From NCBI GenBank assembly GCA_026014495.1, contig JAOZIF010000085.1, forward strand, positions 1 through 10,249: a stretch of 10,249 bases of DNA. The letters run 5' to 3'. Made by a program: the position numbers and the translations under genes. This document shows, piece by piece, positions 2,998-9,601 of the stretch. The notes under the pieces were generated by a model. That model did no database searches. It was not told the origin of the DNA and saw only the letters and a program-made list of their open reading frames with translations. This DNA comes from Candidatus Bathyarchaeum sp. GTDB taxonomy: Archaea; Thermoproteota; Bathyarchaeia; Bathyarchaeales; Bathyarchaeaceae. The stretch's first letter is position 1, and each line of letters opens with the position of its first letter.

Positions 2998-3591
2998 CTA
3001 TTCTTCTACCTTACCCGAATTATATTCATGTTTCTGTTTTTGCTTAGCTAACTCTGCCAATCTGGTATTCACTGTCTGCAATTCATCTTGCATCATCTTA
3101 ATGCCATGCATAATGCGGTTACGTTTCATTTCAAGCACTTCATGTCTACTCTTTGGCTCTTTTTCAAGAAGTGGCGAAAACGGATTTGGCATCCGAGGGA
3201 ATGGCAATGACTTTGGCTCTAACTCAAAAACTGTTTTAATGTAATCTTCAAAAAGGGCGTTCATGTTGTCAGCAATTTGACTTTGTTTCAAGAGGGCGCG
3301 GTCAAGAATTAGTTTTCCCGTTTCGGTGATGTGATAAATTTTGCGTTTTCTTTTCTGGGGACCCCATTCGCCTTTTATGTAGCCTTCTTGTTCTAGGCTC
3401 TGAAGTGTCGGATATGCGCCCCCAGCGGTTGGTTTCCAGAATCCTTCTGTTCGGTCTTCTACTTCTTTCATCATTTCGTATCCGTGACAGGGTTTTCTGC
3501 TTAAGAGAATCAGGAATGCTATTCTCATGTAACCTTTTTGTGCCTCTTTAAGCCATTTTGTGGCTGTTTTTTCTTCATGTCCGGGGTGCAT
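2998..3591 (-). CDS. PadR family transcriptional regulator with C-terminal helical extension
   Basis: LILLSRKPCHGYEMMKEV...WKPTAGGAYPTLQSLEQEGYI...KRKIYHITETGK is the canonical PadR winged-helix signature. Confidence 0.92.
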   Translation of the reverse strand: MHPGHEEKTATKWLKEAQKGYMRIAFLILLSRKPCHGYEMMKEVEDRTEGFWKPTAGGAYPTLQSLEQEGYIKGEWGPQKRKRKIYHITETGKLILDRALLKQSQIADNMNALFEDYIKTVFELEPKSLPFPRMPNPFSPLLEKEPKSRHEVLEMKRNRIMHGIKMMQDELQTVNTRLAELAKQKQKHEYNSGKVEE

Positions 3592-3621
3592 AGTCTTCAG
3601 GTTCTTTAGATGTAAAAGTAA

Positions 3622-3637
3622 TATTTATATTTTGGTG
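3622..3637 (-). promoter_or_regulatory. TATA box and upstream BRE-like sequence for the padR-DUF1512 transcript
   Basis: The minus strand reads CACCAAAA-TATAAATA, with the TATA ending about 30 nt upstream of ATG 3591. Confidence 0.55.
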
Positions 3638-3662
3638 CGATATATTGCAGTAAAATATATCG
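3638..3662. promoter_or_regulatory. Perfect inverted repeat CGATATATT-N7-AATATATCG; candidate PadR operator
   Basis: Arms at 3638-3646 and 3654-3662, in the 103-bp gap between padR and the divergent ABC operon. The right arm overlaps a TATA-like AAAATATAT. Confidence 0.65.
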
Positions 3663-3694
3663 TGAAGAAGGAACGGGCATTGGAAAGCAACAAC

Positions 3695-4705
3695 ATGATT
3701 GAAGTAAAGAACCTCACAAAGAAGTTCGGCGACTTCATAGCTGTAGACGACATTTCGTTTGAAGTAAAGCAAAGTGAAGTGTTCGGTTTACTTGGTCCAA
3801 ACGGAGCAGGCAAAAGCACAACAATAAGAATGCTGACAACATTGATTCGACCCAACGATGGCACTGCAAAAATTGGAGGATATGACGTAATCAAGCAGGA
3901 CAGCAAAGTCAGGGAACTGATTGGGCTTGTTTCCGAAAAGATGATAATGTATGACCGACTTACAGCAAAAGAGAACCTGAAATTCTTCGGAAAACTCTAC
4001 AATATGCCAGATAGTGTTCTCAACCCAAAAATTGATGAACTTTTAGAAATGCTTAATTTAAGTAAATGGAAAAACTCGAAAGTGGGTACATTCTCGACAG
4101 GCATGAGGCAAAGAATGAATGTAATACGAGCATTACTTAACACGCCTCAAGTATTATTCTTAGATGAACCCACACTGGGATTAGACCCGCAGTCGACAGT
4201 TGAAATCAGAGAGTTCATAAAAAAGCTCAACAGAGAACACAAAACAACAATTATTCTCACCACACACATGATGAACGAGGCTGACCTTCTTTGTGACCGT
4301 ATAGGCATAATAGACAAAGGAAAAATTGTTGCACTCGACACTTCTGCAAACCTTAAAAAAACTATTTCAGGCAACGGAACAACAATCTTGAAACTAGAGA
4401 TTCCAAACCTCACAAGCAGTCTACTTAACACAATACAATCAGTAAAATGCGTTAACTCAGTATCCCAAGAAAACAATTCGCACATAAAAATACACGCAAC
4501 TGGCGACGACGCCTTTGACCTCATAATTGACGCCGTAAGAGCAAAGAAGGGAAAAATAAATTCAATTGAGAAACTGGAACCTACACTTGAAGATGTTTTT
4601 CTAAAAATAACAGGCAGGGAAGTTAGAGATAAAGCAGACAACAAAATAGTCATGAAACATGGACCAGGACCTAAGCGTTTTAGTCAAAAACAGAGGGTAA
4701 GGTGA
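3695..4705 (+). CDS. ABC-2/DrrA-like exporter ATP-binding subunit with C-terminal extension
   Basis: MIEVKNLTKKFG start, Walker A GPNGAGKS, signature FSTGMRQR, Walker B VLFLDE, D-loop PTLGLD, H-loop TTH, and C-terminal PTLEDVFLKITG. The start is set to ATG 3695 (TTG 3680 is an alternative). Confidence 0.95.
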   Translation: MIEVKNLTKKFGDFIAVDDISFEVKQSEVFGLLGPNGAGKSTTIRMLTTLIRPNDGTAKIGGYDVIKQDSKVRELIGLVSEKMIMYDRLTAKENLKFFGKLYNMPDSVLNPKIDELLEMLNLSKWKNSKVGTFSTGMRQRMNVIRALLNTPQVLFLDEPTLGLDPQSTVEIREFIKKLNREHKTTIILTTHMMNEADLLCDRIGIIDKGKIVALDTSANLKKTISGNGTTILKLEIPNLTSSLLNTIQSVKCVNSVSQENNSHIKIHATGDDAFDLIIDAVRAKKGKINSIEKLEPTLEDVFLKITGREVRDKADNKIVMKHGPGPKRFSQKQRVR

Positions 4706-4710
4706 GTAAG

Positions 4711-5901
4711 ATGGGAGCAAAAAGTATGATGTCACATAGTTTCAGAATCGCATGGAAAGACTTGCTTGAGGTTTTCAGAAACCGTATGGGGTTAGTCTTG
4801 CTAATATTGATGCCAATTTTCATGATGGTTATGGTTGGGTACATATATCCATCTGATAGTTCCGTAAGCAACGTGACAGTTGCTTTAGTGAATGAGGATG
4901 TTGGCTATGGCGGTTACACAAATGCCAGCTCAACGTTAATTGCCATTTTGGATACTGTAACCAGCAACACAGACTCGATTACGCTTACTGAGGCGGCAAG
5001 TTTTGATGAATTGAGAACGATGATTCAAAGAGGAGATGCAGATGCAGGCATAGTGATAGCCAGCGATTTCACGACAAGTATAATGAATGGGCAACAAGGA
5101 ACAATCACGCTAGTAACAGACCAGTCTAACATGCAAATGTCCGCAACACTACAAGCTGTACTAGAAGAAGTGTTTGATCAACTGGGAACTGCTTTAGCTC
5201 AACAGAACGTTCAAAACTTAGGTGTTGACCCCAGCAACGCGTTAGCGGTCGTGCAGCCATATAACGTCGAAACCCAAGGAGCTATTGAAGGAGAATTTAC
5301 TTACTTTGATTTTGTAGCACCTGGAATAATAGCAATGACCGTGATGATGAGCGTAATGACTGGGCTTCCTGTGGCAATCTCTGAAGAGCGAGAAAGTGGC
5401 ACACTTGATGGAATGATGGTGGCGCCCATTAGCAGAACAGCAGTAATACTTGGAAAAACGCTTGCCCAGATTGGCAGAGGTCTACTACAAGGGCTAATTA
5501 TCATTGCAATAGCTGTAACGATATTTGGTGTTACTATTCACGGAAACATCTTGTTAGTGTTCGCATTGCTGCTGTTGTGTGTGTTTAGCTTTGTTGGTTT
5601 AGGCATTGTGCTAACGTCGTTCACCAAAGACCAAGAAACAGCCACGATGTTAATGTCAACAATAATGTTCCCGATGATGTTCCTTAGCGGAGTATTCTTC
5701 CCAGTAGAACAGATGCCATGGTTTATGCAAGCAATCTCAAAGTGTCTTCCCTTGACATATGTTGCCGATTCACTACGAAAAGTCATGATTCTTGGCGCAG
5801 ACATAACCATGCTGACAACAGAACTAGCGATACTGATTGGCTTTGGAACAGTTATGATTGCAGTAGCTGTGCCTGTGTTCAAAAAAGCAATAACCAGCTA
5901 A
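4711..5901 (+). CDS. ABC-2 type exporter permease with a large extracytoplasmic loop
   Basis: N-terminal TM, about 150-aa soluble loop, then YFDFVAPGII, ERESGTLDGMMVAPI, FLSGVFFP and LPLTY motifs. GGTGA (4701-4705, containing the ATPase stop) is an RBS 5 nt before ATG 4711; GTG 4702 is the alternative start. Confidence 0.93.
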   Translation: MGAKSMMSHSFRIAWKDLLEVFRNRMGLVLLILMPIFMMVMVGYIYPSDSSVSNVTVALVNEDVGYGGYTNASSTLIAILDTVTSNTDSITLTEAASFDELRTMIQRGDADAGIVIASDFTTSIMNGQQGTITLVTDQSNMQMSATLQAVLEEVFDQLGTALAQQNVQNLGVDPSNALAVVQPYNVETQGAIEGEFTYFDFVAPGIIAMTVMMSVMTGLPVAISEERESGTLDGMMVAPISRTAVILGKTLAQIGRGLLQGLIIIAIAVTIFGVTIHGNILLVFALLLLCVFSFVGLGIVLTSFTKDQETATMLMSTIMFPMMFLSGVFFPVEQMPWFMQAISKCLPLTYVADSLRKVMILGADITMLTTELAILIGFGTVMIAVAVPVFKKAITS

Positions 5902-6078: not shown

Positions 6079-6107
6079 AACTTATTCCGAATGAGTTCAT
6101 TTTATAT
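6079..6107 (+). promoter_or_regulatory. 19-bp palindromic operator (copy 1) plus TATA-like box
   Basis: AACTTATTC-C-GAATGAGTT (6079-6097) is one mismatch from a perfect palindrome and is followed by TTTTATAT (6100-6107), upstream of the 4-TM/wHTH gene pair. Confidence 0.7.
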
Positions 6108-6200
6108 TTGTCTTGCACTTCACGTAAGCCGTTTATACGGGTTTATTGGGAGTAGACAGCGTTGCGTGAACGAGACAATCCACCAAATGGAGCGACAGAC

Positions 6201-6875
6201 ATGACAGACATGATTACCGAGGAGCATGTTGTCTCAAAAGTCCAAGAACTAATGGAGACGCTTGACAGCATCAAAAGATACAACGCATTTGCCACTTCGC
6301 TGAAAAAATTTACGATTATAATCGTTGGATTCATGACTATTTTCTCCATTATTGTCGGGCTTATTGACTTTTATAACCTAAGTAATACCCTTGAGAGACC
6401 CATCTTTTTTTCAATATCTTCACTAGCGCTTCTTATTCCAATAAGTGGAATCATAGCTGGAATCTTGTTTGTGAGAAGAAACGTTAACGCCGTTAAAACA
6501 GAAGAATGGAAAGAAGAGCTTTCGCAGGGTTTTCCATCAGCATTAAAGATGCTAATTGAATTGGATTGGAATGAAACGTTTAATGAAATTTCAATGGGAA
6601 AGATAAGTTATGTCTTGTATGGTTTGATGAAAACAGTTGCGTATTGGATTGTTACTTTTTTTGCATTAAGACTTATTGGAACTGCTTTTTCCATTTACTT
6701 TTTTCAGCGCGTAGAGTCTGTGAGCTGGTTTGTCTTGGGTGTGCTCGCCCTTTTGATTGTTCTGTTCACTTTAGGTAACGACCTTCTGAAGCGATACAAG
6801 GAGATTCTTTCACTAGACATGCTCCTTATGGAGTTACGGTGGTTTAGCTTTGAATTCAGAAAAGCCGAGTTCTAA
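6201..6875 (+). CDS. Hypothetical membrane protein, about 4 TM helices in two pairs
   Basis: Long ORF with two hydrophobic hairpins separated by a charged 45-aa linker, and charged helices at both termini. GGAG (6189-6192) lies before ATG 6201; TTG 6162 and ATG 6210 are alternatives. No family recognised. Confidence 0.8.
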   Translation: MTDMITEEHVVSKVQELMETLDSIKRYNAFATSLKKFTIIIVGFMTIFSIIVGLIDFYNLSNTLERPIFFSISSLALLIPISGIIAGILFVRRNVNAVKTEEWKEELSQGFPSALKMLIELDWNETFNEISMGKISYVLYGLMKTVAYWIVTFFALRLIGTAFSIYFFQRVESVSWFVLGVLALLIVLFTLGNDLLKRYKEILSLDMLLMELRWFSFEFRKAEF

Positions 6876-7146
6876 ACCTGACCTTTATGTCATAGCTCGA
6901 ATAATTAAGGTCTTAAAAGATAAGCGTAAGCTAAACCGGACTGCACTTGCAACTTCTACTGGACTTGCCTATGACAAGCTTGTAAATTATCTTGGTTGGA
7001 TGTCTGAAAGAAAATTCGTTGAAATAGATGATAATGGAGACGTGAAGCTGACAAAAGCAGGAAACGAGGCATACAATGAGCTTGTGCAGTGGATAATGAA
7101 GTATGTAGGTCAACTCAGGTTTCCTAGGCTACGTCCAAGAACCTAG
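6850..7146 (+). CDS. Small winged helix-turn-helix regulator (ArnR1-like/HTH_45, COG3432-like)
   Basis: 98 aa. LNRTALATSTGLAYDKLVNYLGWMSERKFVE...VKLTKAGNE matches the T.l...NL.y....YL..L...G.I...LT.KG pattern. The TTG start overlaps the upstream gene by 26 nt. Confidence 0.85.
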   Translation: MNSEKPSSKPDLYVIARIIKVLKDKRKLNRTALATSTGLAYDKLVNYLGWMSERKFVEIDDNGDVKLTKAGNEAYNELVQWIMKYVGQLRFPRLRPRT

Positions 7147-7164
7147 CTTATGGCTTGTAATCAA

Positions 7165-7204
7165 AACTCCCTCGGAATGAGTTCGCCTTTTAAGTTGCCC
7201 CTAA
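7165..7204 (+). promoter_or_regulatory. 40-bp direct repeat copy A: operator copy 2 plus TTTTAA TATA-like box
   Basis: AACTCCCTCGGAATGAGTTCGCCTTTTAAGTTGCCCCTAA, 37/40 identical to 7719-7758. Confidence 0.8.
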
Positions 7205-7251
7205 GTGGTTATGGCAAAGAGATAGCAGGTCACCAATCTTAAACCTCAAAA

Positions 7252-7335
7252 ATGAAAACTACAAACGTGTCAGTTTTCTGCAATCAAGAGTGCCAAGAAA
7301 AGGGTACCGCGCTATGTCAAAACAATTTAAGGTGA
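7252..7335 (+). CDS. Possible 27-aa cysteine-containing peptide MKTTNVSVFCNQECQEKGTALCQNNLR (not in ORF track)
   Basis: First ATG after the start site predicted from the 7188-7193 TATA-like box. Its TGA lies inside the GGTGA RBS of the next gene. It is short enough to be chance. Confidence 0.3.
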   Translation: MKTTNVSVFCNQECQEKGTALCQNNLR

Positions 7336-7341
7336 ACTAAA

Positions 7342-7605
7342 ATGCCTAAACCAAGAGGACCAGAGACCCAAAAAATGCTTAGGTCTATTGTTACTTTGCT
7401 TCGCAACACAACATGGAAGTGTGGAAAAATCGAGCGACGCGTCATGGATTACTTGCAAGGTCAACATAAAAAGCAAGGGGCTGCTCAAACTCCGGTTACA
7501 GATATAATCCAACATTTTGAGGTTCGTGGAAAAAAGAAGAGCGAGTACCTTGAAGCAATACAACGGCTAGAAAAACGTAACATAATCAAGCTATCCATAA
7601 TTTAA
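7342..7605 (+). CDS. Hypothetical 87-aa basic protein, probable winged-helix fold
   Basis: Strong RBS GGTGA (7331-7335) 6 nt before the ATG. The helix pattern IERRVMDYLQ...VTDIIQHF...EYLEAIQRLEKRNII resembles wHTH domains. Confidence 0.7.
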   Translation: MPKPRGPETQKMLRSIVTLLRNTTWKCGKIERRVMDYLQGQHKKQGAAQTPVTDIIQHFEVRGKKKSEYLEAIQRLEKRNIIKLSII

Positions 7606-7718
7606 CCAAAAACAATTAACTGATAAAGCATCAACCGCACAACAGTAGTGTGCACATTATTGCTAAGCACAAAAGCATCCAAAGAATTGTGGTCTGATGT
7701 AGCTATCCATCATGTTTT

Positions 7719-7758
7719 AACTCCCTCGGAATGAGTATGCCTTTTAAGTTGCGCCTAA
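7719..7758 (+). promoter_or_regulatory. 40-bp direct repeat copy B: operator copy 3 plus TTTTAA TATA-like box, promoter of the second ABC operon
   Basis: AACTCCCTCGGAATGAGTATGCCTTTTAAGTTGCGCCTAA. TTTTAA (7742-7747) ends 22 nt before in-frame ATG 7770, the spacing expected for a leaderless or near-leaderless archaeal transcript. Confidence 0.8.
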
Positions 7759-7769
7759 TTTGTATGAGA

Positions 7770-8720
7770 ATGATTATTATGCCATCAATCGAAGCGTCAA
7801 ACCTTTCAAAACATTACGGTTCCTTTGCTGCGGTGTCGAAACTAAACCTCAAGATTGAGGGCGCAAAATGTGTTGGTTTTTTGGGACCTAACGGTGCAGG
7901 AAAAACAACCACTCTCAAAATGTTTACTGACTTAATCAGACCATCTTCTGGAGAAGCCCTGATAAACGGCATAAATGTGCACAAACAAAAAAGAAAGGCG
8001 CTTGAATCAGTGGGCACACTCATCGAAATGCCCGAAATTTATCCTGCACTAACACCACGAGAAGCACTATCTATGATTGCTGAGATTAGAGGCGTGCCTA
8101 AAGCTGAAAGAAAAACCCGCATAGAAGAAGCAGTTGCCGAAGTCAGAATGAACGAATGGATTGACAAGCGTGTCGGCAAATTCTCTAAGGGAATGAAACA
8201 AAGAATCTGTGTTGCATCTGCTATACTCAGTGACCCAAGTGTTGTTCTATTAGACGAACCTACCTCTGGGCTTGATCCTCGTGGAATGAGCGAAGTAAGA
8301 GACATCATAAAAGCGCTAAAAAACAAAAAGCGACTAATTTTCATGAGCAGCCACTTACTTAGCGAAGTTTCGGATGTCTGCGACGAGGTTGCAATTATCG
8401 ACCACGGTGAACTGCTTGTTTATGACACACTTTCTAATGTAACTTCAAAGGTTTCTGGCGGAGAAAGCGTTGTTGAAATTGGGCTTCGAAACACTGTTGA
8501 TGCTGAGCAGGTAACCAAGATAGCCGCAAAACTGCCATACATTGCCAAGGCTGAAAAAAGTGATGGCACAACATTCAGAATACATTTTGATGGTGGCTTG
8601 GAAGCACAAGAAAAACTTCTTGCTGATTTGGTTAAAATGAAGATTGGAATTGTCAGCTACAAACCCGCTTCATCTGCACTTGAAGGCGCATATTTGAGTC
8701 TTATAAAAAATACGTTGTGA
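7770..8720 (+). CDS. ABC-2 type ATP-binding subunit, BcrA/LanF-like
   Basis: Walker A GPNGAGKT, GTLIEMP at the Q-loop position, signature FSKGMKQR, Walker B VVLLDE, PTSGLD, SSH. The start is likely ATG 7770 or 7779 rather than 7731. Confidence 0.95.
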   Translation: MIIMPSIEASNLSKHYGSFAAVSKLNLKIEGAKCVGFLGPNGAGKTTTLKMFTDLIRPSSGEALINGINVHKQKRKALESVGTLIEMPEIYPALTPREALSMIAEIRGVPKAERKTRIEEAVAEVRMNEWIDKRVGKFSKGMKQRICVASAILSDPSVVLLDEPTSGLDPRGMSEVRDIIKALKNKKRLIFMSSHLLSEVSDVCDEVAIIDHGELLVYDTLSNVTSKVSGGESVVEIGLRNTVDAEQVTKIAAKLPYIAKAEKSDGTTFRIHFDGGLEAQEKLLADLVKMKIGIVSYKPASSALEGAYLSLIKNTL

Positions 8721-8725
8721 TAAAA

Positions 8726-9601
8726 ATGACCGAAACATCAACTCTTCCAAAAAATAAGGTACCAAGTAGCATAACTCAAGTTGGCATCACAACAAAGTAT
8801 ACGTTCATTGATTACTTTAGGTCACGCAGATTTTTCATACTATTAACTATAACTTTGTTGATAGGTGCACTGCTCACAGTTTTGGTTGGCTACTATCAAC
8901 CTGACAGTTTTCTTGCCTCTGAGTTAGGCTTTTATTCTAACTGGTGGGGCAACTCCGCAACATACGTTATCATACTTTCAGGAATTTTCTTTGGGGGCGA
9001 CGCAATCGTAGGCGAATTCCAGAACAAAACAGGCTACTTTGGGCTTCCAAACCCAATTAGGCGCTCTTCAGTGTATATTGGAAAGATGCTTGCAGCATTT
9101 TCTGCATCCACTGCAATATTGGGAATATTTACTTTAATCACAGTTGTTAATGGCGTGTACTACTTTGGCCTAAGTGTACCTTTAGAATTTGCTCAATCTG
9201 TGCTTTTTGCGTGGTTCTATCTCGCATCAGTTATTGGGTTCACATTCTTCTTTAGTTCATTGTTTAAGAGCAGCACAATGTCTACAATCGTGACGGCTAT
9301 CCTGTTCTTGTTTGCCTTTTCGCTTATTCAGACTCTCGTTTCGACGCTTGTAGGGATTGAGCCATGGTTCATCTTGACATACGGTGCACAAATCATAGGA
9401 AACGTATTGACTGTGCCGTATCCAGAACACAAAGTTGTAACCAGTTTTGGCGGTGGAGGACAAGCAGGAGTAAACGTGGGATTCTCGTTAACAACATTCA
9501 ATGCACAAATCCCAGTAGGTCTAGCAATAATAGGCATTTACTTCATAGTCACAGCAGTCCTAGGCTTGATACTCTTTGAAATAAAAGAATTCTCAGGATA
9601 A
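8726..9601 (+). CDS. ABC-2 type permease (COG1277/NosY-like), about 6 TM
   Basis: GGDAIVGEFQNKTGYFGLPNPIRRSSVYIGK matches the permease motif E...GT...L..P..R..i..gK, and there are six hydrophobic segments. GTGA (8717-8720, holding the ATPase stop) precedes ATG 8726; GTG 8717 is the alternative start. Confidence 0.9.
   Translation: MTETSTLPKNKVPSSITQVGITTKYTFIDYFRSRRFFILLTITLLIGALLTVLVGYYQPDSFLASELGFYSNWWGNSATYVIILSGIFFGGDAIVGEFQNKTGYFGLPNPIRRSSVYIGKMLAAFSASTAILGIFTLITVVNGVYYFGLSVPLEFAQSVLFAWFYLASVIGFTFFFSSLFKSSTMSTIVTAILFLFAFSLIQTLVSTLVGIEPWFILTYGAQIIGNVLTVPYPEHKVVTSFGGGGQAGVNVGFSLTTFNAQIPVGLAIIGIYFIVTAVLGLILFEIKEFSG

Follow-up and report, generated by a model that had tools for sequence, protein, structure and literature searches.

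The window analysed here is a stretch of 10,249 nt which makes up the whole of contig C191 in a 2.19 Mb assembly (196 contigs, 41% G+C) of a Candidatus Bathyarchaeum species. It possesses a dyad of 17-19 bp in three copies, each placed just 5' of the TATA box of one of three neighbouring transcription units. The first unit encodes a membrane protein with four transmembrane (TM) segments, here called the 4-TM protein, and a 98-aa winged helix-turn-helix (wHTH) protein of the HTH_45 family; the second encodes an 87-aa protein and the third an ATP-binding cassette (ABC) exporter. Comparison of archaeal genomes supports the dyad as the operator of the wHTH protein, which would act on its own operon and on the adjacent exporter. 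A sequence-only reading of the window had proposed that the neighbouring wHTH protein binds the dyad, controls its own operon and commands a small local regulon. This core of the proposal is supported as far as sequence reaches, since 65 of 75 loci, drawn from several archaeal phyla, have the dyad together with the 4-TM and wHTH gene pair, both its offset and its register to the TATA box being fixed. The fuller reading, in which the wHTH protein activates the three units from this operator in the manner of TFB-RF1 of Pyrococcus furiosus and the 4-TM protein serves as its sensor, is given a probability of about 0.55.

The dyad travels with the 4-TM/wHTH gene pair

When 60 relatives were searched with the 4-TM protein, 6 proved to have the gene pair, and a paralogous copy of it was found on contig C110 of the source genome. 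At each of these loci ACTCA-N7-TGAGT (≤2 mismatches) followed by a TATA box was present at the operon promoter. The comparative locus set was obtained by scanning species-representative genomes with an alignment of the wHTH protein and comprised 75 loci, mostly from Bathyarchaeia and also from Vulcanisaeta, Metallosphaera javensis, a metagenome-assembled genome (MAG) of Nitrososphaerales, Brockarchaeota, Thermoplasmata and the Asgard archaeon Atabeyarchaeum. When a TATA box was required 2-6 nt after the dyad, 65 of the 75 loci possessed both, at a fixed offset before the operon; the sequence-only reading had made its proposal depend on exactly this presence of the motif upstream of wHTH orthologues. 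Counted at ≤1 mismatch, the dyad occurs 76 times in these loci, against 8 occurrences of an everted control pattern. Among 95 dyads with a TATA box, 64 are situated 700-1300 nt before the wHTH start, which is the operon promoter, 27 are situated 200-400 nt after it, at the next promoter, and only 4 lie elsewhere.

The loci were grouped in three main types. Type A (~30 loci, ~24 of them with the permease matched) contains the 4-TM and wHTH genes, an ABC ATPase gene and usually an ABC-2 permease gene, and mostly carries two sites; a second copy of the dyad stands before the adjacent ABC-2 exporter in ~30 loci. Type B (23 loci, one site) begins with a gene for a protein of 170 aa that has one TM or signal segment at its N-terminus, followed by the 4-TM and wHTH genes, and type C (~15 loci, one site) consists of the 4-TM and wHTH genes only. 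Loci outside these types have the wHTH or the 4-TM gene alone. Single-site loci number 37 of 75. The only constant neighbours of the dyad across the locus types are the 4-TM and wHTH genes, while the ABC genes, a PadR gene and the 87-aa gene are not common to all of them.

The two constant genes overlap by 25-31 nt in almost every locus (26 nt in the window), with a conserved junction GGTTT(A/G)... TTG/ATG/GTG, and some loci have no standard start codon there. The conserved overlap suggests translational coupling. An internal site in the overlap, ATTCAGAAAAGCCGAGT at 6854-6870, was considered as a further operator and rejected: only 10 of 76 distinct junctions match the core with ≤1 mismatch, so it is a by-product of the conserved overlap.

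Exact cores followed by a TATA box and carrying the family flank were also searched in 61 related genomes. They were found beside the regulator gene in G001, G005, G020, G023, G060 and the source genome, where G005 is the one-contig genome of Candidatus Bathyarchaeum tardum (CP122380), of the same genus as the source organism. Other settings were contig ends (G010, G021) and the region before an ABC gene pair in G012; the remaining core and TATA matches were as frequent as the control pattern. The G012 case (G012:C102, L127, 1080-3377, minus strand) consists of ACTCATTCTCAGTGAGT and TTTTATAT, ~470 nt 5' of paired genes for an ABC ATPase and an ABC-2 permease. Its dyad is of the type found at three-gene operons, and no regulator gene is present on the examined part of this contig of a fragmented assembly. 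By analogy, the G012 exporter would be an unlinked target, as in Pyrococcus.

Within the source genome, the core with a TATA box was found only in the window and at the paralogous operon on C110, so far as further regulon members are concerned. The C110 system (L008, 538-2017) lies behind ACTCACCCTCGGTGAGT and CTTATAT. Its first gene encodes a protein of 171 aa with a single TM or signal segment at the N-terminus, and the others encode a 4-TM protein (34% identical to that of the window) and a wHTH protein (68% identical). As the arms at C110 and at the window sites are identical, cross-talk between the two systems is possible.

Anatomy of the site and its three copies in the window

The dyad has a 17-bp core, ACTC-N9-GAGT, which in the window takes the form ACTyAyTC-S-GAATGAGT. 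Position frequency tables showed that the arms ACTC and GAGT are nearly invariant and the centre variable, a pattern that fits readout by a conserved recognition helix. Exporter promoters of type A have the site ACTCCCTC-S-GA(A/G)TGAGT, with ACTCCC in 31 of 32 distinct sequences, and the own-operon promoters of the same type have its reverse complement, (A/G)CTCATTCGGAGGGAGT. The site is therefore asymmetric, and with respect to the TATA box its orientation at one kind of promoter is the reverse of that at the other.

Promoter statistics were taken from 65 distinct dyad promoters, with the 19 tRNA promoters of the source genome as reference. In 53 of the 65, the end of GAGT is separated by 4 nt from the best TATA 8-mer, and on the usual archaeal promoter geometry we take the 17-bp core to lie at about -51 to -35. 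The B recognition element (BRE), at its positions -5, -4 and -3, has T, T, and C or T at the dyad promoters (A in 1, 6 and 4 of 65), whereas the tRNA promoters are A-rich at these positions (A in 9, 11 and 13 of 19). The dyad thus adjoins a non-consensus BRE, which it overlaps by ~2 bases.

In the window, the three 19-mers at 6079-6097, 7165-7183 and 7719-7737 carry the letters given by the sequence-only reading and differ from AACTCATTCNGAATGAGTT by the 1, 2 and 3 mismatches that it counted. Matches to AACTCATTCNGAATGAGTT are expected 0.01 times on average in shuffles, and three matches were reached in 0 of 200 shuffles. In the whole assembly these three are the only matches with ≤3 mismatches; at 4 mismatches matches occur in 12 places and resemble background. 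The TATA-like boxes described 2-4 nt after each site were also seen (TTTTATAT at 6100, TTTTAAGT at 7188 and 7742), and the placement over the BRE was roughly right: the dyad abuts the BRE position and overlaps it by ~2 nt. Two further ideas, that of a perfect dyad and that of the best site standing at the regulator's own operon, were not supported by the comparison. The ACTCCC arm of sites 2 and 3 is the one conserved in 31 of the 32 exporter promoters, and relatives have the reverse complement of this sequence, ACTCATTCGGAGGGAGT, as the site at their own operon. Since what were counted as mismatches in sites 2 and 3 are conserved in relatives, these deviations are part of the signal; sites 2 and 3 match the exporter type perfectly and it is site 1 that is atypical.

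All features of the window described below are on the forward strand. Site 1 (6079-6097, core ACTTATTCCGAATGAGT at 6080-6096) is the promoter site of the 4-TM/wHTH operon and an atypically symmetric version of the own-operon type, with ACTTATTCCGAATGAGT standing where relatives have their conserved own-operon site, some 750 nt ahead of the wHTH start. It is followed by the TATA-like box TTTTATATT at 6100-6108, and the spacing from GAGT to TATA is conserved across loci. Site 2 (7165-7183, core ACTCCCTCGGAATGAGT at 7166-7182, TATA box TTTTAAGT at 7188-7195) is identical to the conserved consensus of exporter promoters. Site 3 (7719-7737, TATA box TTTTAAGT at 7742-7749) belongs to the promoter of the ABC operon. 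The surroundings of sites 2 and 3 form a 45-nt direct repeat (D1), with copies at 7165-7209 and 7719-7763 which are 89% identical and take in both dyad and TATA box. Sites 2 and 3 hence represent one duplicated promoter and not two independent occurrences.

The duplicated promoter (7165-7763 with both copies) brackets a 554-bp segment which carries the gene of the 87-aa protein (7342-7605), a paralogue within a conserved family of small proteins of Bathyarchaeia. The family was found in 43 of 61 related genomes, with 3 copies in the source genome, and the protein has no Pfam family. Similarity to the paralogues at the DNA level is limited to 7343-7619, members of the family elsewhere stand alone without a dyad, and the gene is absent from all other wHTH loci. 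These three observations show a lineage-specific expansion of the regulon: the middle unit is peculiar to the window, a copy of the exporter promoter driving a captured 87-aa paralogue. The sequence-only reading had placed a peptide gene before the 87-aa gene in this unit. That part is unsupported, the region 5' of the 87-aa coding sequence being without similarity to the paralogue loci; the candidate, an open reading frame (ORF) of 28 codons with three cysteines at 7253-7339, was rejected.

The assignments that the sequence-only reading made for the 4-TM/wHTH pair, the 87-aa ORF and the ABC operon hold. The 4-TM protein (224 aa from the ATG at 6201; 6201-6875) has four hydrophobic segments, at residues 37-55, 72-90, 150-168 and 174-192, and gave no Pfam or NCBIfam match even at E up to 10. 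The wHTH gene, whose product is the proposed binder of the dyad, occupies 6850-7146. In the ABC operon, the ATPase (7779-8720) is DrrA-like (Pfam ABC_tran 4.6e-30; TIGR01188 drrA 4.5e-71, below the family cut-off), and the ABC-2 type permease (8717-9601; Pfam ABC2_membrane_2 1.4e-10) has six hydrophobic segments. As 37 nt separate the start of the TATA box from the ATG of this operon (7779), the mRNA is probably nearly leaderless.

Upstream of the regulator locus are a PadR gene (2998-3591) and a second ABC-2 transporter, without a dyad. This PadR-linked transporter (2998-5901), with ABC_tran plus DrrA1-3_C and ABC2_membrane_3, has the domain make-up of PF1011/PF1012 of Pyrococcus, and the exporter that bears the dyad has a simpler one. 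Further away, a tandem 48-nt repeat at 796-891, with GGGGTAAA...TTTACCC arms and copies 73% identical, is situated between convergent genes and is unrelated to the dyad. A scan of the window for sigma-70 promoters and terminators was set aside as uninformative for an archaeon.

The regulator, its proposed mechanism and the alternatives

The wHTH protein matches Pfam HTH_45 (PF14947) over residues 14-80 with 27.8 bits (gathering cut-off 25.5, E 2.6e-6), and all its listed relatives carry PF14947. The structure was modelled by AlphaFold from a 47-sequence alignment (predicted local distance difference test score, pLDDT, 85.8) and is composed of a winged helix followed by a long C-terminal helix of 18 residues. 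Profile and fold searches gave AspA of pNOB8, Sso10a, Sso10a-2 and MarR proteins as the nearest structures (profile matches: AspA 3.4e-5, Sso10a-2 2e-4; TM-scores of the fold matches 0.65-0.73). AspA, Sso10a and MarR proteins all bind DNA as dimers, and the wHTH protein probably does so too, its dimer being held together by the long C-terminal helix. Against the NCBIfam model Sso10a_fam (NF053610) it scored 30.9 bits, far below the cut-off of 60, and it is thus a relative in fold and not a member of that family. The recognition-helix residues Y41, D42, Y47, L48 and W50 are invariant among relatives. The ACTC and GAGT arms, 12 bp apart from centre to centre, would fit two recognition helices in successive major grooves.

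Several distant relatives of 134-202 aa (P0157, P0173, P0186, P0189, P0209, P0229 and P0230) have one or two TM segments directly before the conserved KPDLYV start of the wHTH domain. From their sequences these would be membrane-anchored forms of the regulator family, in which the regulator is physically tied to the membrane in some lineages.

In the mechanism we favour, a dimer of the wHTH protein would bind the dyad directly upstream of the non-consensus BRE and help transcription factor B (TFB) onto this weak element, as TFB-RF1 does in Pyrococcus furiosus. It would thereby switch on its own operon, with the 4-TM and regulator genes, and the adjacent ABC-2 exporter; in the source genome only, a third unit would be switched on, the captured 87-aa gene behind the duplicated exporter promoter. 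The 4-TM partner would sense a membrane or envelope signal and hold or release the wHTH protein. Such a sensing or sequestering role is suggested by the invariable pairing of the two genes, by their overlap of 25-31 nt and by the fused forms. Activation is preferred on a positional rule, by which the sites of archaeal activators precede BRE/TATA and those of repressors lie inside it or further downstream (PMC5937170). The ArnR boxes, which are upstream and serve an activator, and the YtrASa site, which lies over the transcription start site (TSS) and serves a repressor, both fit this rule. By analogy with these systems, activation through recruitment of TFB is favoured at the dyad promoters, with repression by occlusion of the BRE edge as a serious rival.

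A number of points weigh against this mechanism. Ten of the 75 loci have no dyad at ≤2 mismatches, namely six of Vulcanisaeta and four of MAGs (L041, L054, L076 and L086), although two of these four hold little DNA upstream of the gene. The Vulcanisaeta loci L079-L084 encode wHTH relatives ~50% identical, and L073 and L074 of the same genus have perfect dyads; the L079-L084 paralogues may recognise a diverged site. Binding of the dyad by the wHTH family is predicted from sequence data, and the likeness to TFB-RF1 is one of layout. The arms of the dyad are 12 bp apart from centre to centre, against 9 bp in TCTG-N5-CAGA of the Pyrococcus system, and the motif sequence differs too. The proximal arm touches the BRE position, and the geometry is equally compatible with occlusion of TFB, that is with repression. 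A weak BRE would also be expected if operator bases simply replace BRE bases.

The last two points lead to the best of the alternatives, that the wHTH protein is an autorepressor placed at the BRE edge, where it keeps TFB out until a signal through the 4-TM protein releases it and derepresses the exporter, much as exporter-linked bacterial regulators of the YtrA or MarR type work. The proximal arm does overlap the BRE position by ~2 nt. Repression is also the usual mode of local regulators of efflux genes; relatives of MarR figure among the closest folds, and regulators of the YtrA type repress the operon in which they are encoded with ABC genes (PMC6746942). As the site faces opposite ways at the two promoters, there is also room for different outputs. 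Characterised archaeal repressors, however, mostly bind within or downstream of BRE/TATA, YtrASa covering the TSS (PMC6746942), while activators, TFB-RF1 and ArnR among them, typically have their sites upstream of the BRE, and the consistently poor BRE at the 65 promoters suits dependence on an activator. We hold autorepression to be less likely than activation.

A wider reading, which we put forward only tentatively and as rather improbable in its full form, is that the 4-TM and wHTH proteins make up a widespread archaeal module leading from membrane to promoter, present in Bathyarchaeia, Thermoproteales, Sulfolobales and Asgard and sometimes fused into one membrane-anchored protein. The orientation of the asymmetric operator would there give different outputs at the two promoters according to the half-site that faces TFB, for example capped autoregulation at one and full activation at the other.

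It is unlikely that the dyad is bound by another protein, be it the 87-aa protein, PadR or an unlinked factor, and that the wHTH protein has a different target. The pairing of wHTH protein and dyad does come from comparison of loci, and the 87-aa protein is small, basic and encoded behind one of the sites. The dyad is nevertheless conserved in loci which have no PadR, ABC or 87-aa gene, and only the 4-TM and wHTH genes always adjoin it. The 87-aa family as a candidate binder also fails because its relatives elsewhere stand alone without a dyad.

Least probable is that the repeats are not operators and instead act at the RNA level as hairpins or terminators, or mark the inverted ends of a 4-TM/wHTH cassette that is mobile or can be inverted. 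Site 2 does lie 18 nt after the wHTH stop codon with a T run after it, and in ABC-linked loci the two-gene cassette stands between two asymmetric sites that are inverted relative to each other, but the RNA folds are weak and not better than shuffles (-3.8, -2.2 and -1.6 kcal/mol; z-scores -1.8, +0.3 and +0.3), the arms are invariant in sequence and do not covary, one-site loci (37 of 75) keep the same TATA register, the cassette shares the strand of the ABC genes in all ABC-linked loci that were examined, and no recombinase is present among the matched ORFs of these loci, the other ORFs having had no family search.

Significance and comparison with known systems

In the literature searched, no description of this wHTH family or of the ACTC-N9-GAGT motif was found, and no archaeal transcription factor with a known binding site was described for Bathyarchaeia. 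Very few archaeal transcription factors have a known binding site; here a protein family would be paired with a defined site of 17 bp, whose place in the promoter is fixed across dozens of genomes, some of them from cultured genera (Vulcanisaeta and Metallosphaera). Control of itself and of an exporter is otherwise unsurprising in principle. The features most worth attention are the membrane partner and the orientation flip, an asymmetric site that faces opposite ways at two types of promoter being unusual and, here, conserved.

Known systems share different parts of this arrangement. In fold, Sso10a and AspA (PDB 1r7j, 4hw0 and 5k5q) are the best profile and fold matches and have the same size and order of secondary structure. 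In contrast, Sso10a belongs to the chromatin proteins, AspA binds the centromere and spreads along DNA, and neither has a membrane partner or a promoter-proximal dyad. In genetic logic, the bacterial YtrA-type GntR regulators with ABC genes and the BlaI/BlaR1 pair are similar, as a small autoregulating wHTH protein controls an adjacent ABC system or membrane genes, with a membrane protein as presumed signal input. The wHTH protein of the window has no GntR domain, however, its 4-TM partner has no peptidase M56 or sensor domain as BlaR1 does, with no Pfam or NCBIfam match at E up to 10, and YtrA-type regulators and BlaI are bacterial repressors acting on sigma-70 promoters or on the TSS.

The HTH_45-type domain is presumably the one named 'ArnR1-like' in InterPro and at NCBI, and an ESM Atlas cluster neighbouring the wHTH protein carries this name. 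Distant relatives of the wHTH protein of the window are fused to TM helices as ArnR is. ArnR and ArnR1 of Sulfolobus acidocaldarius are membrane-bound activators which use inverted repeats upstream of the BRE (PMC6396743). Unlike the window regulator, ArnR is a single polypeptide with HTH, HAMP and sensor domains and two C-terminal TM helices, and acts through two boxes of TCGAC-N5-GTCGA at -43 to -84 on archaellum and pilus genes (PMC6396743). The window regulator has 98 aa, composed of a wHTH domain and one helix, and the TM segments are on a separate protein.

By layout, the regulon of TFB-RF1 of Pyrococcus furiosus and other Thermococcales (Ochs 2012; Reichelt 2018) is the closest known system to the regulator locus of the window. 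TFB-RF1 (PF1088) is encoded after pf1089, described in a supplement as a protein containing transmembrane segments (Reichelt 2018, PMC5937170), so that in both systems a small regulator is the second gene of an operon after a membrane protein gene, which in the window it overlaps. The 13-nt palindrome to which TFB-RF1 binds directly precedes a weak BRE and a bona fide TATA box, the distance being conserved, and through recruitment of TFB the regulator activates both its own operon and the ABC-2 exporter pf1011/1012 (PMC5937170). The regulon is similarly tiny here, with the dyad standing before the own operon and, in ~30 loci, before an exporter. The network of TFB-RF1 is conserved across the whole order Thermococcales (PMC5937170), while the present one is found in Thermoproteota, Asgard and others, and activation has been shown only for TFB-RF1.

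The two systems differ also in motif, TCTGAANTTCAGA (13 nt) against ACTC-N9-GAGT (17 nt), with different arms and spacing, in the position of the exporter, which is unlinked in Pyrococcus and adjacent in the window, and in its domains, the exporter of the window having no DUF4162/DrrA C-terminal domain as PF1011 has. The termini of PF1088, taken from primers only (MEEIKEIM... and ...SNRCNTF), were carried by none of the 150 best wHTH profile matches, and this termini-only query found no match in a degenerate metagenome pattern scan or in a PDB search. PH1061 (PDB 1ub9), which may be the P. horikoshii orthologue of TFB-RF1 (PH_RS04980), matched the wHTH profile weakly (E 0.64), and a second profile built from thermophile-like wHTH relatives reached only Thermoproteota.

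With these likenesses and differences, the locus would offer a second, independent case for how activators beside a weak BRE work, and envelope or efflux stress would be a suggested physiological reading for the still unexplained TFB-RF1 network. If homology to TFB-RF1 were true, the orphan Pyrococcus regulon would be one branch of a pan-archaeal circuit of envelope and efflux stress.

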